A stretch of 64,000 nucleotides of DNA from Promethearchaeota archaeon. Lineage in GTDB: Archaea; Asgardarchaeota; Lokiarchaeia; Sigyniarchaeales; SOKP01. Shown one piece after another: positions 6,413 through 25,807 of this stretch. Both the position numbers and the translations under genes were made by a program. Numbering within the stretch: position 1 is the stretch's first letter; every line of letters begins with the position of its first letter. The DNA is taken from assembly GCA_048938895.1 (NCBI GenBank), contig JBHLLU010000011.1, positions 30,265-94,264 of the forward strand. Reading direction: 5' to 3'. The notes under the pieces were generated by a model. That model saw only the letters and a list, made by a program, of their open reading frames with translations. It did no database searches and was not told where the DNA came from.

Positions 6413-6982
6413 ATGTTAGTTAAGATTATGGAGAGTGAAAAAACGGAAATTATTGATTTCTCAGGGGAAAAATTTCATAATTTTACAATGCCATGTTGGA
6501 TTGTAATGATTCTTGTTCCAGTTTTAGCTATCTTAGATACATATTTAATGATTAGATTCCCAGAATCTCCACTTGCTATATTGTTGAGTTTATCTCTAAT
6601 AGGTATCTTTATTATCTATTATTATTATGTGGCTACTAAGTCTCCAGGAAAACTTAGGAAAGTTTCAATTTCATATGATGAAATTGTATTTGAATTACCT
6701 CATAGACCTCAATATACTATTTTTTGGTCTGAATGTGAAAAGATCGAAATTAAGTTAAAAAAGCTTGGGTTAAAACCATTCGACGTATACCATTTTCGTT
6801 TTATTAATGATAAGGCAGATAAAAAAATTATTTTAAGTTTAAATGATTTCCATAAATCGAAAATAACAGATATCTTGAAAATAATAAAGGAACACGCATA
6901 TATAATGAATAAAGAATTCTCTGCTATAAAGGAATCTGAAGTATCAGGAGTGCACTTTATTGAGGATTTAGAGATTAATTAA
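6413..6982 (+). CDS. Hypothetical membrane protein (2 TM + soluble C-terminal domain)
   Basis: Two hydrophobic helices (WIVMILVPVLAILDTYLMI, AILLSLSLIGIFIIYYYYV). No family recognised. Confidence 0.45.
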   Translation: MLVKIMESEKTEIIDFSGEKFHNFTMPCWIVMILVPVLAILDTYLMIRFPESPLAILLSLSLIGIFIIYYYYVATKSPGKLRKVSISYDEIVFELPHRPQYTIFWSECEKIEIKLKKLGLKPFDVYHFRFINDKADKKIILSLNDFHKSKITDILKIIKEHAYIMNKEFSAIKESEVSGVHFIEDLEIN

Positions 6983-6992
6983 TCTTTCCTAT

Positions 6993-8321
6993 CTAATTTT
7001 TAGCACCACACATCGGGCAATTACTAGTATTTTGGAGAGTTGCGCCACATATTTTACATAGAGTAATTGTTGCTGCTCCTCTTTTTCTTGGAGGATTAAG
7101 AGAAGTAATCGAGACAGAGGGTTGAGTTTCTATTTGTACTGGTTTGCTGATTTCCGTTGCAAGATTATCTTTTTTTAACTTAATTTCAATTTCTTTACCA
7201 AAAAATCCACCAACCTTTACCTTTTTTGTAGGTTCTATATAAGGAGTAGGAGGTTTTAATTGATCAATACTAATTTCTTCATCAATTTGTTCCATTTCTA
7301 CTGATGATTCTTCCTCAAATGGTTCTTGTGCTTCCTCAACCTCTATTTCTTCTGGTTCTGTGGGAATATCTTCTTCTGTTTCAAGTTCAGGATATTCTTC
7401 TTCTAATTCTTCTTCATATACCATATTTACAAATTCTTCATCTAATTTCAATAATGTTTCGCATTGAGGACATCGGTATATATGCTTAAATCCGATATTC
7501 TTAGCAAGTGAATACTTTGCAGCACAACAACTGTGAAATTTAGCACTACAATTAAAACACTTATGGATTTCATCTGAATGAGCTTCACAAATGGGACATA
7601 ATTCCTGTTCACAAATTGTACATATTTCTTCGTCATCTGGTGAAAGACTTATAAGATCGACAGCTAAACGTTCGTAGAAAACCTTATCTTCTATTAATAT
7701 ATTTTCTATTTCATCGGTTTTAAGCACTTTAAATTCCTTTTTATTTTGAATTAATGAACCTAGAATATTTTGCAGGAGTTTTTCATCCTGACAATAGAAC
7801 ATACCTCCATGTGTTTCACTCGAAATTACCTTTAATTTAACATCATCCTCATAGAATTTCTCGTTTCCAACTCGAATAATATCAATAAAGGCGGAAAATT
7901 TCTTTGCTTTAATCAATAAATCATATAGGGCATTATAGTAATCTTCAGCTAATTTACTTGGGGTATCAGAAATTATTATTACTCGATAATTTTTCCTTGC
8001 ATCTCTACTTTTTCTAAAGATATAGGCCAATATTTCATACAATCCATTTTCCAAATAACTTTGTTCTGTTTCTCTTGTTTCCCAAGAATTATTGATTGTA
8101 TTTAATACTGCTTCTGAATCTTTTATATCGTATTCATTTACGGGATTCTCATTTTTTTGAAAGATAACTACACCATAAGAGCTTAAAGCATTAAATTTAT
8201 CTTTTTCTTTAATAAATGCACCGATAGCTTTCATCAAAGACTTCTTTTTAAGAAAATCTGATATGATATCTATAAAAAAGATAAATTCCTCCGAATTAAT
8301 TGAATCCGAACTGGTTAGCAT
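6993..8321 (-). CDS. vWA-like domain protein with central PHD/RING-like C4HC3 Cys cluster and C-terminal zinc ribbon (paralog 1)
   Basis: The N-terminal ~190 aa has a Rpn10/p44-style vWA pattern (NYRVIIISDTPS, KKFSAFIDIIRVGNE). Cys cluster: C242-x2-C-x9-C-x2-C-x4-H-x2-C-x17-C-x2-C287. Followed by an acidic linker, a GGFFGK motif and a C-terminal CKICG...CPMCG. Confidence 0.6.
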   Translation of the reverse strand: MLTSSDSINSEEFIFFIDIISDFLKKKSLMKAIGAFIKEKDKFNALSSYGVVIFQKNENPVNEYDIKDSEAVLNTINNSWETRETEQSYLENGLYEILAYIFRKSRDARKNYRVIIISDTPSKLAEDYYNALYDLLIKAKKFSAFIDIIRVGNEKFYEDDVKLKVISSETHGGMFYCQDEKLLQNILGSLIQNKKEFKVLKTDEIENILIEDKVFYERLAVDLISLSPDDEEICTICEQELCPICEAHSDEIHKCFNCSAKFHSCCAAKYSLAKNIGFKHIYRCPQCETLLKLDEEFVNMVYEEELEEEYPELETEEDIPTEPEEIEVEEAQEPFEEESSVEMEQIDEEISIDQLKPPTPYIEPTKKVKVGGFFGKEIEIKLKKDNLATEISKPVQIETQPSVSITSLNPPRKRGAATITLCKICGATLQNTSNCPMCGAKN

Positions 8322-8474
8322 CTTTATGCTTATTTACTATTTGAATCTATGAAAAATATCCTTAAATTATAAAAAAATAATATTAGAAGTTGTATTTATT
8401 TTTATTTATTATATTTCTGATTTAGGTAAAATTTCTATTTGCAATTATTACTGTCTAAATTTGTTAAAAAAACA

Positions 8475-9848
8475 TTATATTATCCTAAAACCACAATTTG
8501 GACATTTAGTTTCTTGGTTGGGATTTATTTGTGTTCCACATTGCTGACAAATCAAAAAATTAGATTGAGATCTCGTTCTAGAAGACCTTGTATTATTGGA
8601 GGAATTTAAAGTTAGAGTTTTTTCTTTTAATTTAGTGGGATTTGCGTTATTGGATTTGAAAGTAGCTTTAGTAGATATCCTCTCATACACAATTTTATCA
8701 TTTACTTTTTTAACAGTATATACTTTTCCAAAGAATCCACCTATTCTAACTGTTTTAATTGTTTCTCCCTCTGCGTTTACATGGTTACTAAGGGATGTTG
8801 AATCTAATTTCTTAATTTCTCTTTGAATGGGAGGAGCTACAGTTTTTAGGGCTGGTTTTGCTTTTTCAAGTCTTTTAGGAATCTGTTCTAGTACTTCTTT
8901 TACCATGAATTCTTTTACTGTTGTCACTTCTACTTCACCAGATACTTCAATAATTTCATCCTCATCAATCTTAAGGAGTACATCACATTTTTTATTAGGG
9001 CAACGAAAAATGTTAGGGATTCCAATATTATGGTTTATAGTGTAATTTGTAATACAACAATTATGAAAACTAGTATTACAATCCTCACAAACTAAGGGAA
9101 TATCATCAACATTGGTACAAACTGGGCATAGCTCCTCATTACAGAAATAACATACCAACTTTTCCATAGTTGATTCTGATTTTAATAAGGGTTTCGCTAA
9201 ATAGTTATAAAAGGAATAATCTTCTTTACTTATCTGAATCCGATTAGGTTGATCAGTAAAAGTACTAGTAAATTGTTTAGTTTTTACTAATTTTTTTATT
9301 GTATCATTGAATTCTTTTTTCTCATGAATGTAAAATATCCCACCCTTGGTATCGCTTGCTAACATATTCAATTTTACGTCATCACTAAAAAATCTTGTAT
9401 CGCCCTCAGAAATTCTTAGAATATCGATAAAAGTAGGGAAATTCTTTATTTTTGAAACAAGATTAAATAATGCTTCTTGATAGTCTTCTGATAAATCAGA
9501 GGGTGTATCTGTTATAACTATAATTCGATTAAATTTTGACTTCTTTCTTACTGTTTCTGCGATATAAGAAAAGATATAGAATAGCCCATTTTCAAAGAAA
9601 CTTTGCTTCCTTGGTCGAAATCTCCAATTTTCTTCAATAGAATTTGCAATTATTCCCGCATCTTTCTTATCTGTAATAAATATTGGATTGCCTTCTTCTT
9701 GGAAAATGAGAATTGAATAATGTCCCTTTAAGTTAACTTTATTTTTTTCATCAATGTAATATTTAATAGCTTTTATTATCTCTTTTTTTTTAAGTAAGTC
9801 TTTTGTTAGATCCAAGTAGAAATAGACATCTTCTTTCATATTCTTCAC
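8475..9848 (-). CDS. vWA-like domain protein with central PHD/RING-like C4HC3 Cys cluster and C-terminal zinc ribbon (paralog 2)
   Basis: Collinear with 6993..8321 (NRIIVITDTPS, NFPTFIDILRISEG). Cys cluster: C241-x2-C-x9-C-x2-C-x4-H-x2-C-x17-C-x4-C288. Also has GGFFGK and a C-terminal CQQCG...CPNCG. Confidence 0.6.
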   Translation of the reverse strand: MKNMKEDVYFYLDLTKDLLKKKEIIKAIKYYIDEKNKVNLKGHYSILIFQEEGNPIFITDKKDAGIIANSIEENWRFRPRKQSFFENGLFYIFSYIAETVRKKSKFNRIIVITDTPSDLSEDYQEALFNLVSKIKNFPTFIDILRISEGDTRFFSDDVKLNMLASDTKGGIFYIHEKKEFNDTIKKLVKTKQFTSTFTDQPNRIQISKEDYSFYNYLAKPLLKSESTMEKLVCYFCNEELCPVCTNVDDIPLVCEDCNTSFHNCCITNYTINHNIGIPNIFRCPNKKCDVLLKIDEDEIIEVSGEVEVTTVKEFMVKEVLEQIPKRLEKAKPALKTVAPPIQREIKKLDSTSLSNHVNAEGETIKTVRIGGFFGKVYTVKKVNDKIVYERISTKATFKSNNANPTKLKEKTLTLNSSNNTRSSRTRSQSNFLICQQCGTQINPNQETKCPNCGFRII

Positions 9849-9993: not shown

Positions 9994-11964
9994 ATGGAGA
10001 ATTTTTTAAAAAAATTACAGCTTTCTGATAATGCAATAAAAATATATACTGAATCCTTGGGTAAAGATCCACTTACGTTTTATGAATTATACTCAATAGT
10101 TCAAAATATTTCTCAAAACGCTTTTGAAGATGCCCTTACTCAATTAATAAATGGAGGGTTACTTATTCAATTGGTGCCAAAAAAGCAGGAGATTTTATTA
10201 CATTATTTGACTATCCCCCCAATTTTTCCCATAATAAATTATTACGAGAATATAAATGCAAATTTAATGGGTATAAAAGACTCAATTCAGAAGTTGATAA
10301 AACATACCATCAATCAAACGTTTCAGCAAAATGAAACAATTCAATTAGATACTATCATAGAATCATTTCAGGACATCAGAAAAGACATTGAAGAAGATAC
10401 TATTATTCAAAAGCAAGAGGTCGAAGATATTGTAAAAGGAATGGAAGAATTAAAAAGCTTAACTAAGGATATCTCTGAGTTAGACCAACAAATCAAAATC
10501 GTCACCCAAACGAATTTTGCTAATCTCATGAAAAAGATTTCGGGAATTAAGTCAGAAATAACCACTGAGATTAATAACCTTGAATTTAAGAAGCACAAGG
10601 AAGAAATAATATCTATTATAGATAATAATTTCAAAGAAAAATTAGATAGACTAGTTCAGGAATTTTCTACTGATTTACATGAAGTAATAGAAGAAAAATT
10701 TGAATCAACATCTAAGCCAATAGAAGATTTGATTAACGCAACTTTTCAGTATCGTGATGATTTTAAATTAATCCTTCTCAATTTGCTAAGTAATTTTGAA
10801 ACTAAAATGAATAAAATTCAAGAGACACTTAAAGAAAATAAAGATCTCCTTTCTGATGAATTGGGTAAACTTAAAATCAAATTACACGAGGACTTAAATC
10901 TGGTTGTTCAAAATTCAGTCGATCAAGTTTCAGGATTGAATAAACCTGTTGAAAATATTATGAGAGAATATTTTCAGGAAATGAGATCTTCTGATAAAAT
11001 AACAGTATCAGATATTTGGACTATTAATAGTCTTACTAAAATTAATGAAGAAATTCAGAAGTTCATTACCACTTCACAAGAAGAATTAATAATTATTGTA
11101 CCTCAACTTGAGAGTCATTTGGCTGCTGAACAATTTGAGAAAATTCCAAGAAGTTTAAAGGTAAGAGTTGCTTCTTCAGAGCCATATACCAATAGCAGTG
11201 TTAAAAATTTCCAATCTATCACAAATTTAATGTATAAAACTCTTGAAAATGAGAATTTAATCCTTTTAAAAGGGGATAATAATCAAATTGCTTTGGGTCT
11301 TATTCAAGAAAATGCACAAGATCCATTAAATGATTTCATTGGAATTGCTAGTAATTTTCCTCCAATTGTTGAATTGCTAAGTCCAATCATTCAACATTTG
11401 TGGGAAGAAGCCTATTCTGATTCATTTTATGGTTCACAAAAAGTTCAAACACAAGGAGTTAAAAAAATAGAATCAAAAACTTACCAGAAAATAAAGCCAA
11501 TCACATCTACTCAAATCCAATCCGAAAGGATAGAATATAAGCAAAAAGATATTCTGAAAGACCAACCTCAAGAAAGGAAAGAAGAAATTCATCCTAAACC
11601 TCAAAAAATACCTTCTATTTTACCTGATGCTCAAGAACAAGTTGATGCAATAAAACAAAAATTACAGGCAAAGCTAGATTTTGTTTCTTCTTCCAAAAGA
11701 AAAAAGGGAGATGAAGCAGGGCTTTTAATTAACGCTGCTTTTAATAATTTGATTAATAAATTAAATAATATTAAAGGGGAGGAGTTCAGTGTGGAGCTCC
11801 AAAAGATTGCTGATTTAGTTCTTGAAAAAAGGGGTTTTTCAGTTACCTTACATAAATTAAGAAGTTTCATTAATCAGTATAGATTTAGTGATCTACTTTT
11901 AAGTGAAAGTGATAAAAAACAAATCATTGGAAATATTGAAAATTGGAAGGATAAGTTAGTATGA
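9994..11964 (+). CDS. TrmB-like winged-helix protein with very long coiled-coil insert
   Basis: The N-terminus LQLSDNAIKIYTESLGKDPLTFYELYSI resembles the TrmB HTH. It is followed by ~300 aa of heptad-rich, E/K/I/L-rich sequence. A C-terminal globular region (ELIIIVPQLESHL...LKVRVASSEP) is shared with ORF 44737..45537. Confidence 0.5.
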   Translation: MENFLKKLQLSDNAIKIYTESLGKDPLTFYELYSIVQNISQNAFEDALTQLINGGLLIQLVPKKQEILLHYLTIPPIFPIINYYENINANLMGIKDSIQKLIKHTINQTFQQNETIQLDTIIESFQDIRKDIEEDTIIQKQEVEDIVKGMEELKSLTKDISELDQQIKIVTQTNFANLMKKISGIKSEITTEINNLEFKKHKEEIISIIDNNFKEKLDRLVQEFSTDLHEVIEEKFESTSKPIEDLINATFQYRDDFKLILLNLLSNFETKMNKIQETLKENKDLLSDELGKLKIKLHEDLNLVVQNSVDQVSGLNKPVENIMREYFQEMRSSDKITVSDIWTINSLTKINEEIQKFITTSQEELIIIVPQLESHLAAEQFEKIPRSLKVRVASSEPYTNSSVKNFQSITNLMYKTLENENLILLKGDNNQIALGLIQENAQDPLNDFIGIASNFPPIVELLSPIIQHLWEEAYSDSFYGSQKVQTQGVKKIESKTYQKIKPITSTQIQSERIEYKQKDILKDQPQERKEEIHPKPQKIPSILPDAQEQVDAIKQKLQAKLDFVSSSKRKKGDEAGLLINAAFNNLINKLNNIKGEEFSVELQKIADLVLEKRGFSVTLHKLRSFINQYRFSDLLLSESDKKQIIGNIENWKDKLV

Positions 11965-12959: not shown

Positions 12960-13673
12960 ATGGTTTTTTGCGCAACCTGTGGGGCTGAAATCAAAGATCC
13001 AGAAATGCAGAATTTCTGCGAAAAATGTGGTTCACCTGTTTCAGCTACACTTAGAAAAAAAGAAATAGTCTCAATACCATCTACAGCCGGAGGAATAACA
13101 ACCTTAGGCTTTGAACCTTATGATCGTCCAGGTGGATTGTTTGATATTAACCGGAACTATTATATCCTGAAAGAAAAATATTGGGATTGGGGTTCTGGCG
13201 ACATTTTAGACGAGAATAATAAGATTATAGGTAGAATGAATAGGGTCATCTTTAGCATAAGACGTAGAGTTGAGTTAATCGAATTAGATGGCACTATTGC
13301 TGCTACTATTCACTCCAAGATTGTATCGGCTCGTGGGGCACAAGATCTCAAAGATCCGCATGGTAACATGATTGCACGAATTAAAAAGAAAATAACGTCT
13401 GTTATCCGACCGAAATTTTTCTTAGAAGACATAAATGGAACAAGATATTTTGAAGCTCAAGGGAAATTTATGGGGTGGAGTTACAAGGTGACTGATATGC
13501 AAGGGAACCTAATTGCAGAAATCGAGAAAGCTGACAAATGGAGAGATGTTTTTCTTGGTGGTTTATTGGATTTTAAAGATACATATGCATTGAGAATATT
13601 AGACAATGAAACAGATAGAAGAATCTTATTAGGATTTGTACTATCGATTGATAATGTGCTTCATGATATGTAG
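12960..13673 (+). CDS. N-terminal double zinc ribbon fused to a LURP-one-related/tubby-like (DUF567) domain
   Basis: CATCGAEIKDPEMQNFCEKCGSPV at the N-terminus. The remainder (YYILKEKYWDWG...RRVELIELDG...FFLEDINGTRYFEAQGKF.GWSYKV) has the repetitive beta pattern of the LOR/scramblase-like family. Confidence 0.5.
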   Translation: MVFCATCGAEIKDPEMQNFCEKCGSPVSATLRKKEIVSIPSTAGGITTLGFEPYDRPGGLFDINRNYYILKEKYWDWGSGDILDENNKIIGRMNRVIFSIRRRVELIELDGTIAATIHSKIVSARGAQDLKDPHGNMIARIKKKITSVIRPKFFLEDINGTRYFEAQGKFMGWSYKVTDMQGNLIAEIEKADKWRDVFLGGLLDFKDTYALRILDNETDRRILLGFVLSIDNVLHDM

Positions 13674-13852: not shown

Positions 13853-14941
13853 ATGACTGAATATGATACTTTCATGGTATATGAACTGGATGATTCTGGG
13901 GAAAAGAATAGAATAAGTATCACTGAAGAGGAATTACATTCAAATTTACATCCAGAGCAAGTTCTAGTTATAGTACGTGAAGATTTAAGGAGAATATTTA
14001 TTTGGAAAGGCCCAAAATCCCCTGTACGAAAAAGATTTATTAGTTCTAGAGTTGCCCAAGAACTCCAGGATGATTTGAGAAAAAGTGCGGCCATGCATCG
14101 ATGCAAAATCGTTTCTGTAGATGCTGGTGATGAACCTTCTGAATTTCTAAATGCATTTCAATTAGACTCTATGGAAGTAACTGAAAGATTAGCCGATATG
14201 AGATATGTACGAAATATTGAGAAAGAGAGGATAAGTGAAGCGGTTATAAAAGATGTTGTTCCAGAAACAAAAGAAGAATATGTTTCTCCTACTTTTCAAG
14301 ATTCCTCTACAAACGTTGTCTCATCTCCACATTCTAAACCTGCCATTACTCCAACAGCAAGCCCTCAAAATCAGTATCCTAAGCATCGGTTACCTACAGG
14401 AGGTTTATCAAAGGATGATTATGAAAAGATTAAAGAGAAAATTTTAAAAACAGAGATTTCAGATAGTTATAAAAGACTTAACTTAATTTCAGGTCATACT
14501 CTATTTGCGGCTGTTTCCAAAGTTGCTAAAGTATTTGGGGAAGAAGTCGAAGAAACTGAATGGGAACCTGTCAAAAAAGTACCTAAAGAAGTGATTGAAT
14601 TAGATAATCATCTCTTAAGAATATATTTTAATAAAGATATAGGTATAGTTGAAGCAGTGGAAATTCTAGAAAAATCTGGTCAGCCAACGAGTATTAAAAA
14701 AAAATTAAGCTCTGAATCGACATTAACACCAATGCCTGCCAAGCCTAATTCAATGGAAATTACAGCAGTAGATTTTAACTCCCTGACAGTAAAAGATCTT
14801 AAAAAGTATGCTGAAGAAAAAAATATAGATTTACCTGCAAATCTACGAAAAGCTGAAATAATAGAAATTTTAGAAAAATCAAAAAAGAATAATCCTGGTG
14901 GTAGACGACAATTACCAAAGATTCCTAGTAAAGATGATTAA
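13853..14941 (+). CDS. Gelsolin-domain protein with C-terminal HeH (SAP/Rho-N-like) motif
   Basis: The N-terminal ~105 aa reads VLVIVREDLRRIFIWKGPKSPVRKRFISSRVAQEL...CKIVSVDAGDEPSEFLNAFQ. This follows the gelsolin-repeat pattern (FILD-x-G-x-I-x-W-x-G...EG-x-EP-x-F). The C-terminal LTVKDLKKYAEEKNIDLPANLRKAEIIEILEK is a helix-extension-helix motif. Confidence 0.65.
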   Translation: MTEYDTFMVYELDDSGEKNRISITEEELHSNLHPEQVLVIVREDLRRIFIWKGPKSPVRKRFISSRVAQELQDDLRKSAAMHRCKIVSVDAGDEPSEFLNAFQLDSMEVTERLADMRYVRNIEKERISEAVIKDVVPETKEEYVSPTFQDSSTNVVSSPHSKPAITPTASPQNQYPKHRLPTGGLSKDDYEKIKEKILKTEISDSYKRLNLISGHTLFAAVSKVAKVFGEEVEETEWEPVKKVPKEVIELDNHLLRIYFNKDIGIVEAVEILEKSGQPTSIKKKLSSESTLTPMPAKPNSMEITAVDFNSLTVKDLKKYAEEKNIDLPANLRKAEIIEILEKSKKNNPGGRRQLPKIPSKDD

Positions 14942-14961: not shown

Positions 14962-15561
14962 TTAATCAGAAGGATTAGTATTATTTTCTTCTGAAACCTC
15001 ATCTACTCCTTGATCTTTTTCATCTCCTCTACTTCCAGGCTTTCCTTCATCCATTTTCTGTGGTTTTGTCTTTTTTTTAATCTTTTTTAATCCCTCTATT
15101 GCTTCTTTTCTTACAATTGCACTCTTATCTTTAAGTGCTTTTGCTAATGCTTCTAAACTATATGGATGGTGGAGGTCACCTAATTCATCACACGCTTCTC
15201 TTCTTACATTCTCATCTGGATCATTTAGGAGTACATAGGTTAGGACGCCTAATACTTTTGTATCCCCAAAATCTCCTAAAGTGTCAACTGCTTCTTTTCT
15301 TACTTCACTGTCAGGATCAGTGACTGCTGTGATTGCTAATTGTTTTGAAATCTCGTCAGAATTACCTATAGGTTCAATAGCACTCAGATCTACTCCACAA
15401 TACTTACAGAAATTATGAGTAATTTTAATTGCTTTTCCACACGCAGGACATACTCTTTGTGTGTTAAAATCAATAAAAGATTTATTAGGATATGGAGCCG
15501 AATCTCTTATTTTATAAGGATTTTGTTGAGGATTAAGTTTTAAATTCCTATCTCTTCGCAT
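14962..15561 (-). CDS. Zinc-ribbon + HEAT-repeat (PBS-lyase type) protein
   Basis: CPACGKAIKITHNFCKYCGVDL is followed by three HEAT-like repeats: DPDSEVRKEAVDTLGDFGD, DPDENVRREACDELGDL and DKSAIVRKEAIEGL. Confidence 0.7.
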   Translation of the reverse strand: MRRDRNLKLNPQQNPYKIRDSAPYPNKSFIDFNTQRVCPACGKAIKITHNFCKYCGVDLSAIEPIGNSDEISKQLAITAVTDPDSEVRKEAVDTLGDFGDTKVLGVLTYVLLNDPDENVRREACDELGDLHHPYSLEALAKALKDKSAIVRKEAIEGLKKIKKKTKPQKMDEGKPGSRGDEKDQGVDEVSEENNTNPSD

Positions 15562-22879: not shown

Positions 22880-25123
22880 TTGAATTATGATTTAATCAAG
22901 AACTTAGACAGGGATTTCGATTTTGACTGCATTAACAAAAAAATCAAGGATTTAGAAGTTCTCTTATCTCAGAATGAGATTCACAGTAATATTCAATATA
23001 ATGAATGGTTAAATGATTTTAAAAGAATATATGGGGAAATCGGGACCAATCTACGTTTGTATATCCAATATGCATTAATATATTTTATCGGAATTCTTTT
23101 CATTTCTAATTTTATTTTCCAAGAAGATATTAGGCAGTTAAATATAGAAAATTTGTTAAAAGAATTAAAAAAGTCTGAAGACCATATAAAATCAACTTTT
23201 AATGCGCAAGAGATAATTAATTTCGAATATTTTAATCCTTTATTCTCGCTTTCAGAGAAAATAGATTTAAGTATTTTTAGTAAAATAATTTTAAACACAT
23301 CAACATATCTATTTGAGTTAGATATCAATCCTGTTTATATATTTGATTACATATTTCAAAAAATCATTTCCCCCATTATTAGGCATAAAAAGGGAGAATA
23401 TTACACACCTCCTTTTTTAGTGAAGAAAATGGTCAATAAATCATATTCCATAGGAGAAACAGTTCTAGATCCTTGCTGTGGTTCAGGAAACTTTCTTGTA
23501 GGAATTCTATTAAAAATATTTTCAAATAACATTGATAAGGATGTGAAAATTGATGCAATAAATAAAATATGGGGATTTGATATTAACCCGATTTCGATTT
23601 ATCTTTCAAAAATTAACATTTTATTCCTTACAAAAGATCTTAATTCCAAAATTAAGCTTAATTTATATGTCAATGATTTCTTGTTTAATAAAAAGAAAGA
23701 ATTAAAGGATAAATTTGATTTAGTAATAGGAAATCCTCCATGGTATACTTATAGAGACGTAGAATCTAAGGATTACCAGGAATCTTTAAAATTTCTTGCT
23801 GAAAGATTAGAAATTAAACCTCGACCAAAAAATATTTTGAATATGGAAGTCTCTACCTTATTTTTTTGTAATGCAATTTATTATATGAAGAATAATGCAA
23901 AAATCTTTTTTGTCATTACAAAAGGAGTAATTACTGGTTCACATGCCTCAAGATTTAGGTACTTTAAAGATTTTTCGGAAATTAAAATATGGTTATTTGA
24001 TAAAGAATTAGAAAAAATTTTCAATATTGATTTTATATGCCTCTATGCTCATAAAACCCTAAATGTAGAAAAGGGAATTCAATATAAAATTCCAACCTAT
24101 CATTTTATTTTGAAAAACAATGATGCAGATAAAGAGATAACTTTGATATTAAAAAAAAAAGATGTGTTTGTTCCCTTTTCAATCGAAGAATATGGAGAAA
24201 AAATTTACATCAAAAAACTAATATCACCAGAGAAAATGGAGAATTTATTACCATTAGGGGTGAGCTTCTATAAAGGACTCTTTCACAAAGGTGCTGATTT
24301 AAATCCTAGAAATTTAATATTTGTAAGTGAGCAATTTGTTAATGATTCCTTAGTTAAAATCAATCCTGATGATCGTATATTCAAACAATCTAAAATTCCA
24401 TGGAATAAAAGAGAATTTGAAAATGAAATCATTGAAAAAAAATATATCTTCAAAGTAGTGAAAAGCACAGAATTAGTTAAATTTTCTGTGTATGACAGTT
24501 ATAATGTCTTTTTACCTCTCTCCAAAAATGATTTGAGCTTTACATATGAAAATTTAGACCAAAATGCCAGAAATTTCTATGGGAAAATAAATAAAATATA
24601 TCTCAAATATAAAAAAGAGACAACTACTCATAATTCTATAATGGAAAACCTTAATCGTTGGTCAAAATTAATCAACCCCAGACAATTATCAAAAATAAAA
24701 GTAGTTTATAATAACTCTGGTTCAATAATAAACTCTGCAGTGATACAAGGAAATTTCATAATTACAGGAGATCTCAGTTTTTTTGACACACCTAATCTTG
24801 ATGAGGCTTATTATCTGTCAGCTGTGTTAAATTCAAACATTTTAACAGAACAAATCAAGATAATGAAAAGTTCAAGACACATATTTAAGCTTCCTTTTAA
24901 TGTACCCATTAAAAAATATGATACAGAAAATTTTAATCATCGACAGTTAGCAAAATTAAGTAAAAAGGGACATGAAATTGCTTTATCCTCGATTAGTAAT
25001 ATTCTCATAAATAATAAAGAAAAGGCTTCTAAAATTAAGATTCAAAAGATATTAAATAAAGAATTAAAGCTTATCCTAAATCAAATTGATGAATTTGTGA
25101 TTAAAGAATTAAATCCTCACTGA
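22880..25123 (+). CDS. N6-adenine DNA methyltransferase, gamma class (Eco57I/TaqI-like), with large C-terminal region
   Basis: Motif X GEYYTPPFLV, motif I VLDPCCGSGNFLVG and motif IV VIGNPPWYTY occur in gamma order. TTG start in the track. No nuclease motif or partner was recognised. Confidence 0.8.
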   Translation: MNYDLIKNLDRDFDFDCINKKIKDLEVLLSQNEIHSNIQYNEWLNDFKRIYGEIGTNLRLYIQYALIYFIGILFISNFIFQEDIRQLNIENLLKELKKSEDHIKSTFNAQEIINFEYFNPLFSLSEKIDLSIFSKIILNTSTYLFELDINPVYIFDYIFQKIISPIIRHKKGEYYTPPFLVKKMVNKSYSIGETVLDPCCGSGNFLVGILLKIFSNNIDKDVKIDAINKIWGFDINPISIYLSKINILFLTKDLNSKIKLNLYVNDFLFNKKKELKDKFDLVIGNPPWYTYRDVESKDYQESLKFLAERLEIKPRPKNILNMEVSTLFFCNAIYYMKNNAKIFFVITKGVITGSHASRFRYFKDFSEIKIWLFDKELEKIFNIDFICLYAHKTLNVEKGIQYKIPTYHFILKNNDADKEITLILKKKDVFVPFSIEEYGEKIYIKKLISPEKMENLLPLGVSFYKGLFHKGADLNPRNLIFVSEQFVNDSLVKINPDDRIFKQSKIPWNKREFENEIIEKKYIFKVVKSTELVKFSVYDSYNVFLPLSKNDLSFTYENLDQNARNFYGKINKIYLKYKKETTTHNSIMENLNRWSKLINPRQLSKIKVVYNNSGSIINSAVIQGNFIITGDLSFFDTPNLDEAYYLSAVLNSNILTEQIKIMKSSRHIFKLPFNVPIKKYDTENFNHRQLAKLSKKGHEIALSSISNILINNKEKASKIKIQKILNKELKLILNQIDEFVIKELNPH

Positions 25124-25288: not shown

Positions 25289-25807
25289 ATGCGTAATTTT
25301 CTCTTTAAAGTGCTCATTTGTGGTGAAGGTGGAGTTGGTAAAACCTCACTTTTAAGACGATATGTAGATGGTTTCTTTGATGAAAGTACAATTATGACCG
25401 TCGGCGTCGAGTTCTTCGTCAAAGAAATTATATTCGATGATATTCGTTGTTCACTTCAACTTTGGGATTTAGGGGGTCAAAAAAGATTTAGATATCTGAT
25501 TGAAAATTATGTGATGGGAGCGCGTGGCGCTATTCTATTAGTAGATCTAACCAATATGCCTAAAATAGGGGATATATTAGAATGGGTAAATATAGCCAGA
25601 CTTCATGACATAAATTTACCAATTGTACTGGTTGGATCCAAATTTGATTTAGAAGATTTTATTGCTATTGATGACGATAGTGCTCAACATATTAAAAATA
25701 CATTTAATATACTAGATTATATAAAGACTTCTGCTAAATCGGGTCATAATATTGAAAAACCATTTGAAATTCTAACAAAAAGATTAATTAAAATTAGTAA
25801 ATATTAA
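25289..25807 (+). CDS. Small GTPase, Rab/Ras-like
   Basis: G1 GEGGVGKTS, switch I TVGVEF, G3 WDLGGQKRF, G4 variant GSKFD, G5 SAK. There is no C-terminal prenylation Cys. Confidence 0.8.
   Translation: MRNFLFKVLICGEGGVGKTSLLRRYVDGFFDESTIMTVGVEFFVKEIIFDDIRCSLQLWDLGGQKRFRYLIENYVMGARGAILLVDLTNMPKIGDILEWVNIARLHDINLPIVLVGSKFDLEDFIAIDDDSAQHIKNTFNILDYIKTSAKSGHNIEKPFEILTKRLIKISKY

Follow-up and report, generated by a model that had tools for sequence, protein, structure and literature searches.

A strictly kept tandem pair of von Willebrand factor A and RING-type finger proteins in Loki-lineage Asgard archaea

A conserved tandem pair of vWA and RING-type finger genes

The 64,000-nucleotide stretch of a Promethearchaeota archaeon genome analysed here (contig JBHLLU010000011.1, positions 30,265 to 94,264; hereafter the window; ~30% G+C) carries two adjacent genes on the minus strand whose products share one architecture: a von Willebrand factor A (vWA) domain, a RING-type zinc finger, a linker, a GGFFGK hairpin and a four-cysteine (C4) zinc ribbon. 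The pairing of the two genes is ancient and has been strictly maintained across Loki-lineage Asgard archaea, and each gene encodes a cytoplasmic multi-domain adaptor. Structure models support a RING-class fold for the finger, which probably binds three zinc ions, and the likeliest of the readings considered, though short of even odds, is that the pair constitutes an obligate heteromeric vWA-RING adaptor resembling ubiquitin ligases (E3). The features of the pair are listed below, with residues numbered as in paralog 1 throughout; A1 denotes a 99-sequence alignment spanning both paralog families, and pLDDT the predicted local distance difference test score of an AlphaFold2 model.

6993..8321, minus strand: paralog 1 gene, 442 amino acids (aa), net charge -32 (open reading frame, 718 homologs, AlphaFold2 model)
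7737..8294, minus strand: paralog 1 vWA domain, aa 10-195 (PF00092, AlphaFold2 fold, Foldseek)
7647..7709, minus strand: conserved helix before the finger, aa 205-225 (A1; helix at 210-219 in the AlphaFold2 model)
7461..7622, minus strand: paralog 1 RING-type finger, C234-C287 (invariant ligands, domain model, co-variation, APC11 alignment)
7236..7400, minus strand: paralog 1 disordered acidic linker, aa 308-362 (pLDDT <50; disorder over 306-365 in the AlphaFold2 model)
7173..7235, minus strand: amphipathic beta-hairpin with GGFFG at aa 371-375, nt 7194-7211 (A1; weakly predicted in the AlphaFold2 model)
7005..7058, minus strand: paralog 1 C-terminal C4 zinc ribbon CxxCG-x9-CxxCG, C422/C425/C435/C438, with a basic stretch before it
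8475..9848, minus strand: paralog 2 gene, 457 aa from GTG 9848, net charge +10 (open reading frame, homologs)
8985..9152, minus strand: paralog 2 RING-type finger, aa 233-288 (pattern, E2-contact residues)
8724..8741, minus strand: paralog 2 GGFFGK motif
8490..8549, minus strand: paralog 2 C-terminal zinc ribbon (Pfam)

An initial annotation of the window, made from the nucleotide sequence, had described the two genes as adjacent minus-strand collinear paralogs, and this is borne out: both open reading frames are present, and their products align collinearly over the full length with 34% identity (E 7e-78). The 457-aa length of paralog 2 is that of the mechanical open reading frame; because orthologs in the databases are 454 aa long, the start is probably ATG 9839, giving 454 aa, rather than GTG 9848. 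The pattern C-x2-C-x4-C-x2-C-x9-C-x2-C-x4-H-x2-C-x17-C-x2/4-C, which had been reported as strictly conserved, lies exactly at nt 7461-7622 and 8985-9152 and is found in 240/240 retrieved homologs. Beyond that pattern, the finger contains an eleventh invariant cysteine (C265) and an invariant aspartate (D250), so that the invariant finger positions of A1 comprise C234, C237, C242, C245, D250, C255, C258, H263, C265, C266, C284 and C287; also invariant are I276, G277 and R283, GGFFG at 371-375, and the C-terminal C422, C425, C435 and C438. On alignment evidence, the invariance of these residues across A1 is conservation, chance being excluded. Between the two genes (minus strand, 8322-8474), a run of seven T follows the stop codon of paralog 2 and TTTTTTATAA stands ~40 nt upstream of the paralog 1 ATG; together these may indicate that paralog 1 has its own promoter, which in a genome of ~70% A+T is weak evidence.

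Searched exhaustively with a profile, 1.84 billion cluster representatives yielded 202 proteins at E <=1e-3 (148 at E <=1e-10), and the generic vWA superfamily was not drawn in. The named homologs of both window proteins all come from Asgard metagenome-assembled genomes (MAGs), mostly labelled 'Promethearchaeota' or 'Lokiarchaeota'; in the NCBI taxonomy, Promethearchaeota is the Loki phylum within the kingdom Promethearchaeati. When 30 of the 202 family proteins were looked up, 17 bore a name: 13 Promethearchaeota, Promethearchaeia or Lokiarchaeota, one Helarchaeota, one Sigynarchaeota, one 'Bathyarchaeota' (on a 4-kb contig, perhaps misbinned) and one with a functional label only ('YegL'). 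The phyletic survey of the vWA-finger combination that the initial annotation had proposed therefore returns a small family, nearly all of whose named members are Loki-lineage Asgard archaea.

Relatives turned up in 120 of the species-representative genomes scanned; the best 80 provide the locus counts given here. All 80 loci lie on Promethearchaeota-type contigs. In 73/80 species loci paralog 2 stands immediately upstream of paralog 1, in the same orientation and ~160 nt away; the other seven have short or truncated upstream flanks, and the pair persists to ~50% identity. Some MAGs that stem from a single project and have JBHL... accessions (L012, L018, L019, L021, L035 and others) are titled Hodarchaeota, Thorarchaeota, Hermodarchaeota or Odinarchaeota; these labels look unreliable, and the loci in question are 60-85% identical to, and syntenic with, Promethearchaeota loci.

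Fold and zinc ligands of the finger

The full-length AlphaFold2 model of paralog 1, built on A1 (mean pLDDT 73.8), lays a beta-beta-alpha-beta-beta arrangement over the cysteine cluster at pLDDT 65-90, with a helix after the finger at 295-307; in the helix before the finger, D212, F215, Y216, L219, A220 and L223 are invariant or almost so in A1. A model of the finger domain alone (pLDDT 74) shows the same beta-beta-alpha-beta-beta layout, with a central helix after H-x2-C. Its best match in the PDB by Foldseek is the RING-H2 domain of Deltex (E 0.011, probability 0.99-1.0, template modelling (TM) score 0.55-0.60), followed by the RINGs of TRIM2, APC11 (28% identity), NSE1, Slx1 and Listerin; the best matches are all RINGs, at probabilities of 0.95-1.0, and PHD fingers and p44/Ssl1 (chains at E 0.3-0.7) rank below them. 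Comparison of the sequence profile with PDB sequences yields weak matches to PHD (MTF2, the best, E 0.0056), TRIM RING and RAF C1 domains. A distant family member, P0290, passes the Pfam cut-offs for PHD (26.1 bits versus 24) and C1_1, and nearly that for Prok-RING_1; PHD (PF00628) is not among the families listed in a Pfam scan of the window proteins and 99 family members. PHD fingers such as those of MTF2 and KDM5 share the C4HC3 signature and spacing of the archaeal finger, whereas the central helix after H-x2-C in the archaeal model is typical of RINGs. The models support a RING-class cross-brace rather than sequential ribbons: of the PHD/RING-type character originally assigned to the cluster, the cross-brace class is supported by the model and its RING matches, and the PHD part is disfavoured, since RINGs outrank PHD fingers in the structure search. 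The Foldseek comparison of a cross-brace with two zinc ribbons, proposed at the same time, gave matches of the predicted finger model to RING cross-braces.

The eight-ligand spacing of RING and PHD fingers is present and invariant as C234-x2-C237...C255-x2-C258-x4-H263-x2-C266-x17-C284-x2-C287. In distant members of the family the finger is a plain C4HC3, C-x2-C-x10-12-C-x2-C-x4-H-x2-C-x17-C-x2-C, which lacks the second CxxC pair and whose first pair aligns with C234/C237. Because these members keep the C4HC3 spacing without the second pair, the canonical eight ligands begin at the first CxxC, and the alignment supports a classical C4HC3 arrangement in which C234/C237 with H263/C266 would hold Zn1 and C255/C258 with C284/C287 would hold Zn2. 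The register given in the initial annotation, in which the PHD consensus was fitted from the third cysteine onward, is thereby displaced: the CP[IV]C pair C242/C245 is an insertion.

It is very improbable that the cluster consists instead of independent zinc knuckles or ribbons arranged in series, without a RING or PHD cross-brace. The segment C-x2-C-x4-C-x2-C might close on one zinc alone, Pfam finds only weak zinc-ribbon matches (Zn_ribbon_5) in the cysteine stretch, and the finger domain model is moderately confident; however, the perfect C4HC3 spacing of relatives that lack the second pair cannot be met sequentially, the beta-beta-alpha core matches RINGs at the high probabilities given above, and the second CxxC pair co-varies with position 265 inside H-x2-C, which implies that the ligands are interleaved.

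A probable third zinc site

This co-variation, in a set of 106 representative fingers, points to a finger that probably binds three zincs, with C242/C245/D250/C265 as the proposed Zn3 site. The second CxxC occurs together with Cys or His at position 265 in 43/106 fingers and both are absent in 56/106; the exceptions (7/106) are mostly truncated sequences or fragments, or have a degenerate pair. The Fisher p of 6e-22 is not corrected for phylogeny and overstates independence, because the sequences are related. Among insert-bearing fingers with tabulated loop patterns, Asp is the fifth loop residue in 35/46, and four others have a Cys in a longer, 10-residue loop in place of the Asp. In three members position 265 is His, giving H-x-H-C as in Rbx1 and APC11.

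The three zinc sites of Rbx1 are formed by C42/C45/H80/C83 (Zn1), C75/H77/C94/D97 (Zn2) and C53/C56/C68/H82 (Zn3). The archaeal finger resembles Rbx1, Rbx2 and APC11 in having twelve ligands in the same order (1,2 / 3,4 / 5 / 6,7 / 8 / 9 / 10 / 11,12). As in Rbx1 and APC11, its third site would combine an inserted CxxC, one loop ligand and the residue between ligands 5 and 6, with an Asp among the ligands; a CP-x-C is also shared, as is an aromatic side chain four residues beyond ligand 6. A hidden Markov model alignment to APC11 (sequence verified) pairs CP[IV]C with CPDC, H263 with H56, C265 with H58, C266 with C59, Y270 with W63 and CPxC with CPMC. According to a survey of RING types, Rbx1/APC11-class RINGs bind three zincs and have an Asp ligand (PMC3166285). 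Unlike the RING-H2 core of these proteins (C-x-H, then H), the archaeal finger has a C4HC3 core (C-x2-C, then H), a shorter insert and no cullin-binding N-terminal strand; the window fingers match neither zf-rbx1 nor zf-ANAPC11 in Pfam, and the C-x-H core of RING-H2 is not found in them. Because basal members lack the insert, the likeness to Rbx1 and APC11 is probably convergent, the third-site insert having probably arisen within the archaeal family.

Two departures from the common architecture occur among relatives. P0374 (393 aa), a family member, has a canonical vWA domain (VWA_2, 65 bits), a three-zinc finger with H-L-H-C and, at its C-terminus, a second finger of the APC11-type RING-H2 class (PF12861, 31.5 bits). 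Relatives of ~1100 aa (e.g. P0343 and P0347) have the finger near aa 280, followed by long regions of unknown kind.

The vWA domain, linker and C-terminal region

The N-terminal domain had been proposed to be a vWA domain without an obvious DxSxS metal-ion-dependent adhesion site (MIDAS), and both proposals hold. The Pfam model PF00092 matches paralog 1 at 25.5 bits against a cut-off of 23.8 (E 1.7e-5) and is found in 50/99 family members; the vWA match (barely, and in paralog 1) and the zinc ribbons are the only Pfam domains above cut-off. Residues 10-195 are modelled at pLDDT >90 with the canonical vWA order b1-a1-b2-b3-a2-a3-b4-a4-b5-a5-b6-a6, and Foldseek matches the domain to the vWA domains of p34, p44/Ssl1, Rpn10 and MERIT40 at TM ~0.7. 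The MIDAS, the metal-binding site of vWA domains, is degenerate: only D18, S88 and D119 among its positions are invariant, the DxSxS serines are missing, the complete DxSxS...T...D set is not found, and the first motif reads D-x-T-x-D/E in paralog 2 and D-x-[IVT]-x-[DN] in paralog 1. An intact MIDAS is not obligatory for membership of the vWA superfamily.

The strong acidity noticed earlier in the paralog 1 linker is conserved, with a net charge of -17 +/- 3 across 50 orthologs; the linker of paralog 2 has a charge of about -3. The GGFFGK motif, described as conserved in the initial annotation, and the C-terminal CxxCG ribbon are both conserved in A1, in which GGFFG and all four ribbon cysteines are invariant, and ribbon families of Pfam (Zn_ribbon_3, DZR and L37e-type) match 30-74 of 99 members.

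Resemblance to TFIIH p44 and p34

The comparison with p44/Ssl1 made in the initial annotation was apt: when the full-length model is compared with the PDB by Foldseek, the top 36 matches are all p44/Ssl1 or p34/Tfb4 (E 1.6e-11 to 2.3e-8), after which come MERIT40, Rpn10 and ANTXR1. Many of the p44 and p34 matches span 280-355 aligned columns, and the alignments therefore reach past the vWA domain. With the vWA domain alone there is a near tie among p34 (E ~4e-9), MERIT40 (2e-8), Rpn10 (4e-8) and ANTXR1 (9e-8). As modelled, the vWA domain is of the intracellular p44/p34/Rpn10-like type; the Foldseek ranking is no evidence of orthology.

The architectural parallels extend to the pair as a whole. 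Like the archaeal proteins, p44/Ssl1 and p34/Tfb4 are paralogous intracellular vWA proteins with degenerate MIDAS sites and C-terminal zinc fingers, and p44 (sequence verified) combines its vWA domain with a C4 finger and a RING-like finger. It is conceivable, if unlikely, that the pair forms a non-catalytic scaffold of the p44/p34 kind, in which the finger of one protein rests on the vWA domain of the other and the assembly holds and regulates other factors, for example helicases of the XPD/XPB type; even an archaeal relative of p44/p34 is possible. The full-length alignments, which cover the vWA and zinc regions alike, the paralog pairs of vWA and zinc-finger proteins in both systems, the composition of p44, the occurrence of p44/Ssl1 among the finger-only matches and the strict keeping of the gene pair all favour such a scaffold. 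It is weakened by the small margin of the vWA-only comparison over MERIT40, Rpn10 and ANTXR1, by the near restriction of the family to the Loki lineage, by the lack of a helicase gene near the pair in the window and three related genomes, and by differences in construction: the zinc modules follow the order vWA-RING-C4 in the archaeal proteins and vWA-C4-RING in p44, the archaeal finger is C4HC3 with a third site whereas that of p44 is C4C4, and the long disordered linker and GGFFGK hairpin are absent from p44 and p34. Unlike p44 and p34 of the eukaryotic core TFIIH, the archaeal pair has no known link to XPD or XPB and occurs mostly in Loki-lineage Asgard archaea.

Nor did any sequence method show a link. 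Searches of PDB sequences with the single sequence and with family profiles returned no p44, p34, Rpn10 or Sec23/24, only weak PHD, RING, C1 and zinc-ribbon matches, and the Pfam scan of the window proteins and 99 members listed no Ssl1 (PF04056), Tfb4 or C1_4. Alignment of family profiles by hhalign with single human sequences (p44 and p34, both verified, PSMD4 and CMG2) gave probabilities of <=2% for all, a comparison without power because a generic vWA control also gave <=2%. The distant member P0374 does match Ssl1 at 30 bits, but non-specifically, because VWA_2 scores far higher (65 bits). In the literature searched (Asgard with TFIIH or p44; coverage incomplete), no archaeal homolog of p44 or p34 was found. 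Kinship of the tandem pair with the module from which p44/p34 arose, be it as an archaeal relative or as a surviving sister, is distinctly unlikely; that module is a heterodimer of paralogous vWA and zinc-finger proteins, one of them bearing a RING-type finger, that scaffolds helicases of repair and transcription and may possess E3 activity. Such kinship would give part of the 'eukaryote-only' TFIIH core a forerunner in Asgard archaea, and if the likeness reflects descent it would bear on the origin of that core; in a weaker version of this reading, the pair would be the first heterodimeric three-zinc RING E3 outside eukaryotes.

Other vWA proteins were compared as well. Sec23/24-like proteins are not among the structural matches and have the wrong domain order. 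NCBIfam returned nothing meaningful. The initial annotation had also raised a role in ubiquitin reception, and Rpn10-like receptors docking on the proteasome through their vWA domains would accord with the good structural match to the Rpn10 vWA (E 4e-8, TM 0.70). Such a role is nevertheless highly improbable: at E up to 1, Pfam detected neither a ubiquitin-interacting motif nor a ubiquitin-binding family of another kind among the window proteins and the 99 members, for which reason an Rpn10-like identity was rejected; Rpn10 also ranks under p44, p34 and MERIT40, and the additional RING and ribbon are absent from Rpn10.

Genomic context

The pair has a conserved divergent neighbour:

9994..11964, plus strand: 656-aa protein with a weak TrmB-like winged helix (N-terminal) and a long coiled coil

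Transcribed divergently, this gene adjoins the pair in 70/80 species loci and evolves faster than the pair, down to 27-45% identity. Its product falls in a family of hypothetical proteins, Lokiarch_20150 among them, that is found only in the Loki lineage; the TrmB match has E 0.2, neither the single sequence nor a 30-sequence profile matched any PDB entry, and Pfam gave no identity. Much of the synteny at the level of the block may reflect kinship, yet paralog 2 and the 656-aa gene are adjacent even in the most divergent loci. The coiled-coil protein may be a partner, a substrate or a regulator of the pair. No proteasome or helicase genes lie near the pair in the window and the three related genomes, where the context is of housekeeping genes. 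Downstream of the pair the genes are less constant. PADLOC matched no defence protein to the pair or its two neighbours.

On the other side, a predicted membrane protein of 189 aa (6413-6982, plus strand) converges on paralog 1, the two stop codons being 10 nt apart; 37/80 loci retain it in this place, and its only match, a weak one, is to DUF4870. Two distant members of the family with plain C4HC3 fingers have other company: one (L005, 8001-9332) lies beside Arf/Rag-like GTPases and a second vWA protein, and the other (L007, 3455-4777) beside a Roadblock/LC7 protein. These neighbours could hint at a link with small GTPases, or could be due to chance in GTPase-rich genomes.

Possible function of the pair

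Strict pairing, complementary charge (-32 versus +10) and the conserved helices flanking the RING lead us to infer a heteromer. In the mechanism that we propose, acidic paralog 1 and basic paralog 2 would associate, probably via the RING-flanking helices in the manner of BRCA1-BARD1, RING1B-BMI1 or TRIM dimers; the vWA domains would hold a substrate or partner complex; the RING of paralog 2 would recruit a charged ubiquitin-conjugating enzyme (E2); and the heteromer would act as a RING E3-like ligase or adaptor in the Asgard ubiquitin system, with the 656-aa coiled-coil protein as a candidate partner, substrate or regulator. The two paralogs differ, in the order paralog 1, then paralog 2, as follows:

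vWA charge: about -1; about +5
Residue C1+2: I/V; F/L
Residue C6+1: A/G/S; I/V/L
Residue C6+4: Y; Y/H
Residue C7+1: P/L/I; P (49/49)

As aligned, paralog 2 keeps hydrophobic residues at the positions by which canonical RINGs contact E2. A cascade of E1, E2 and RING E3 from Asgard archaea has been reconstituted, in which the RING protein is a small one distinct from the pair (bioRxiv 10.1101/2023.07.25.550441), so the required partners exist in the phylum.

Several observations weigh against an E3-like role. In both paralogs the last Cys is followed by Glu or Asp, whereas many active RINGs have an Arg or Lys 'linchpin' there; a RING-like domain may have a structural role alone, as in TFIIH p44; the finger model is of moderate confidence (best pLDDT 74, the other four models 35-60); the window proteins match no RING or PHD model of Pfam above cut-off; and no ubiquitin, E1, E2 or JAB gene lies within ~10 kb of the pair in the window and three related genomes.

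That absence of ubiquitin genes fits an adaptor unrelated to ubiquitin, in which a PHD- or C1-like finger would bind peptides or be structural, the basic tail and ribbon would bind nucleic acid or another protein, and the pair would work together with the 656-aa neighbour in chromatin, transcription or cellular organisation. We consider this possible but doubtful. The rank of MTF2, a PHD finger, as the best sequence-profile match and the PHD and C1_1 matches of P0290 are consistent with it, as are the basic stretch before the ribbon, the L37e- and RPAB4-type matches of the ribbon itself, the neighbour's retention in 70/80 loci and the small GTPases and Roadblock protein beside distant relatives. 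Against these stand the placing of RINGs above PHDs in the structure search and the retention of the E2-contact hydrophobics and CPxC, above all in paralog 2; the neighbour's winged-helix call is weak, and profile searches of that protein gave nothing.

The E3-like adaptor has partial parallels among known proteins. In plants, RGLG1/2 and the WAV3 family carry a vWA domain that binds substrate or partner and a RING on one polypeptide, and each protein of the archaeal pair likewise joins a vWA domain to a RING-type finger; unlike the archaeal proteins, RGLG has a copine-type vWA domain with an intact MIDAS and a C-terminal C3HC4 RING, and to our knowledge RGLG and WAV3 proteins do not occur as paralog pairs. 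Prok-RING_1 proteins (PF14446) and the small RING E3s of Asgard operons resemble the pair as RING-type fingers in archaea; in the pair, unlike in these, the RING is fused to a vWA domain and a ribbon, and the genes stand in tandem outside a ubiquitin operon. PF14446 scores 15.5-24.6 bits on distant members, all under the 29.1-bit cut-off, and does not match the window proteins. Cross-brace fingers had been called overwhelmingly eukaryotic in the initial annotation, which is an overstatement in view of the prokaryotic family PF14446, the Asgard RING-E3 cascade and the 'RING finger protein' labels of NCBI.

Novelty and significance

A search of full-text literature (Asgard with vWA, RING, TFIIH or p44; coverage incomplete) found no description of the family. 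The domain content is not new, because the automatic annotation of NCBI has given some orthologs the names 'RING finger protein' or 'vWA domain-containing protein'. What appears to be new is the obligate tandem pair, the correct ligand register and the grafted third zinc site, together with the structural closeness to TFIIH p44/p34 and the conserved coiled-coil neighbour. Eukaryotic ubiquitin signalling is characterised by RING E3s, by heterodimers of RING proteins and by Rbx1/APC11-type RINGs with three zincs, and the Loki lineage, of which cultured Lokiarchaeia exist, is a model for eukaryogenesis. The strictly conserved pair makes it possible to test how E3s acting as substrate adaptors, or scaffolds like p44/p34, arose before eukaryotes, and the presence of members with and without the insert in one family is a natural experiment on the grafting of a third zinc site onto a RING. 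If there is no descent shared with TFIIH, the pair still represents an uncharacterised, lineage-specific family with already recognised domains.

Other genes of the window

Beyond the 656-aa gene, the plus-strand gene at 12960-13673 encodes an N-terminal zinc ribbon and a C-terminal domain related to LURP-one, scramblase or tubby-like proteins (PF04525, E 1.2e-8), a fold mostly known from eukaryotes; the gene is split in two in some related genomes (L002, L003). It is followed by a plus-strand gene (13853-14941) whose product has, at its C-terminus, an HeH/LEM-like or Rho_N motif that falls just short of the Pfam cut-off, and by a minus-strand gene (14962-15561) for a small protein with a zinc ribbon and HEAT repeats; both are conserved in the same block of related genomes. 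Farther along the plus strand, 22880-25123 encodes a 747-aa Eco57I/MmeI-type N6 DNA methylase that may be a restriction-modification enzyme of type IIG, and 25289-25807 a Ras-family small GTPase (PF00071, E 5e-37) typical of Asgard genomes.

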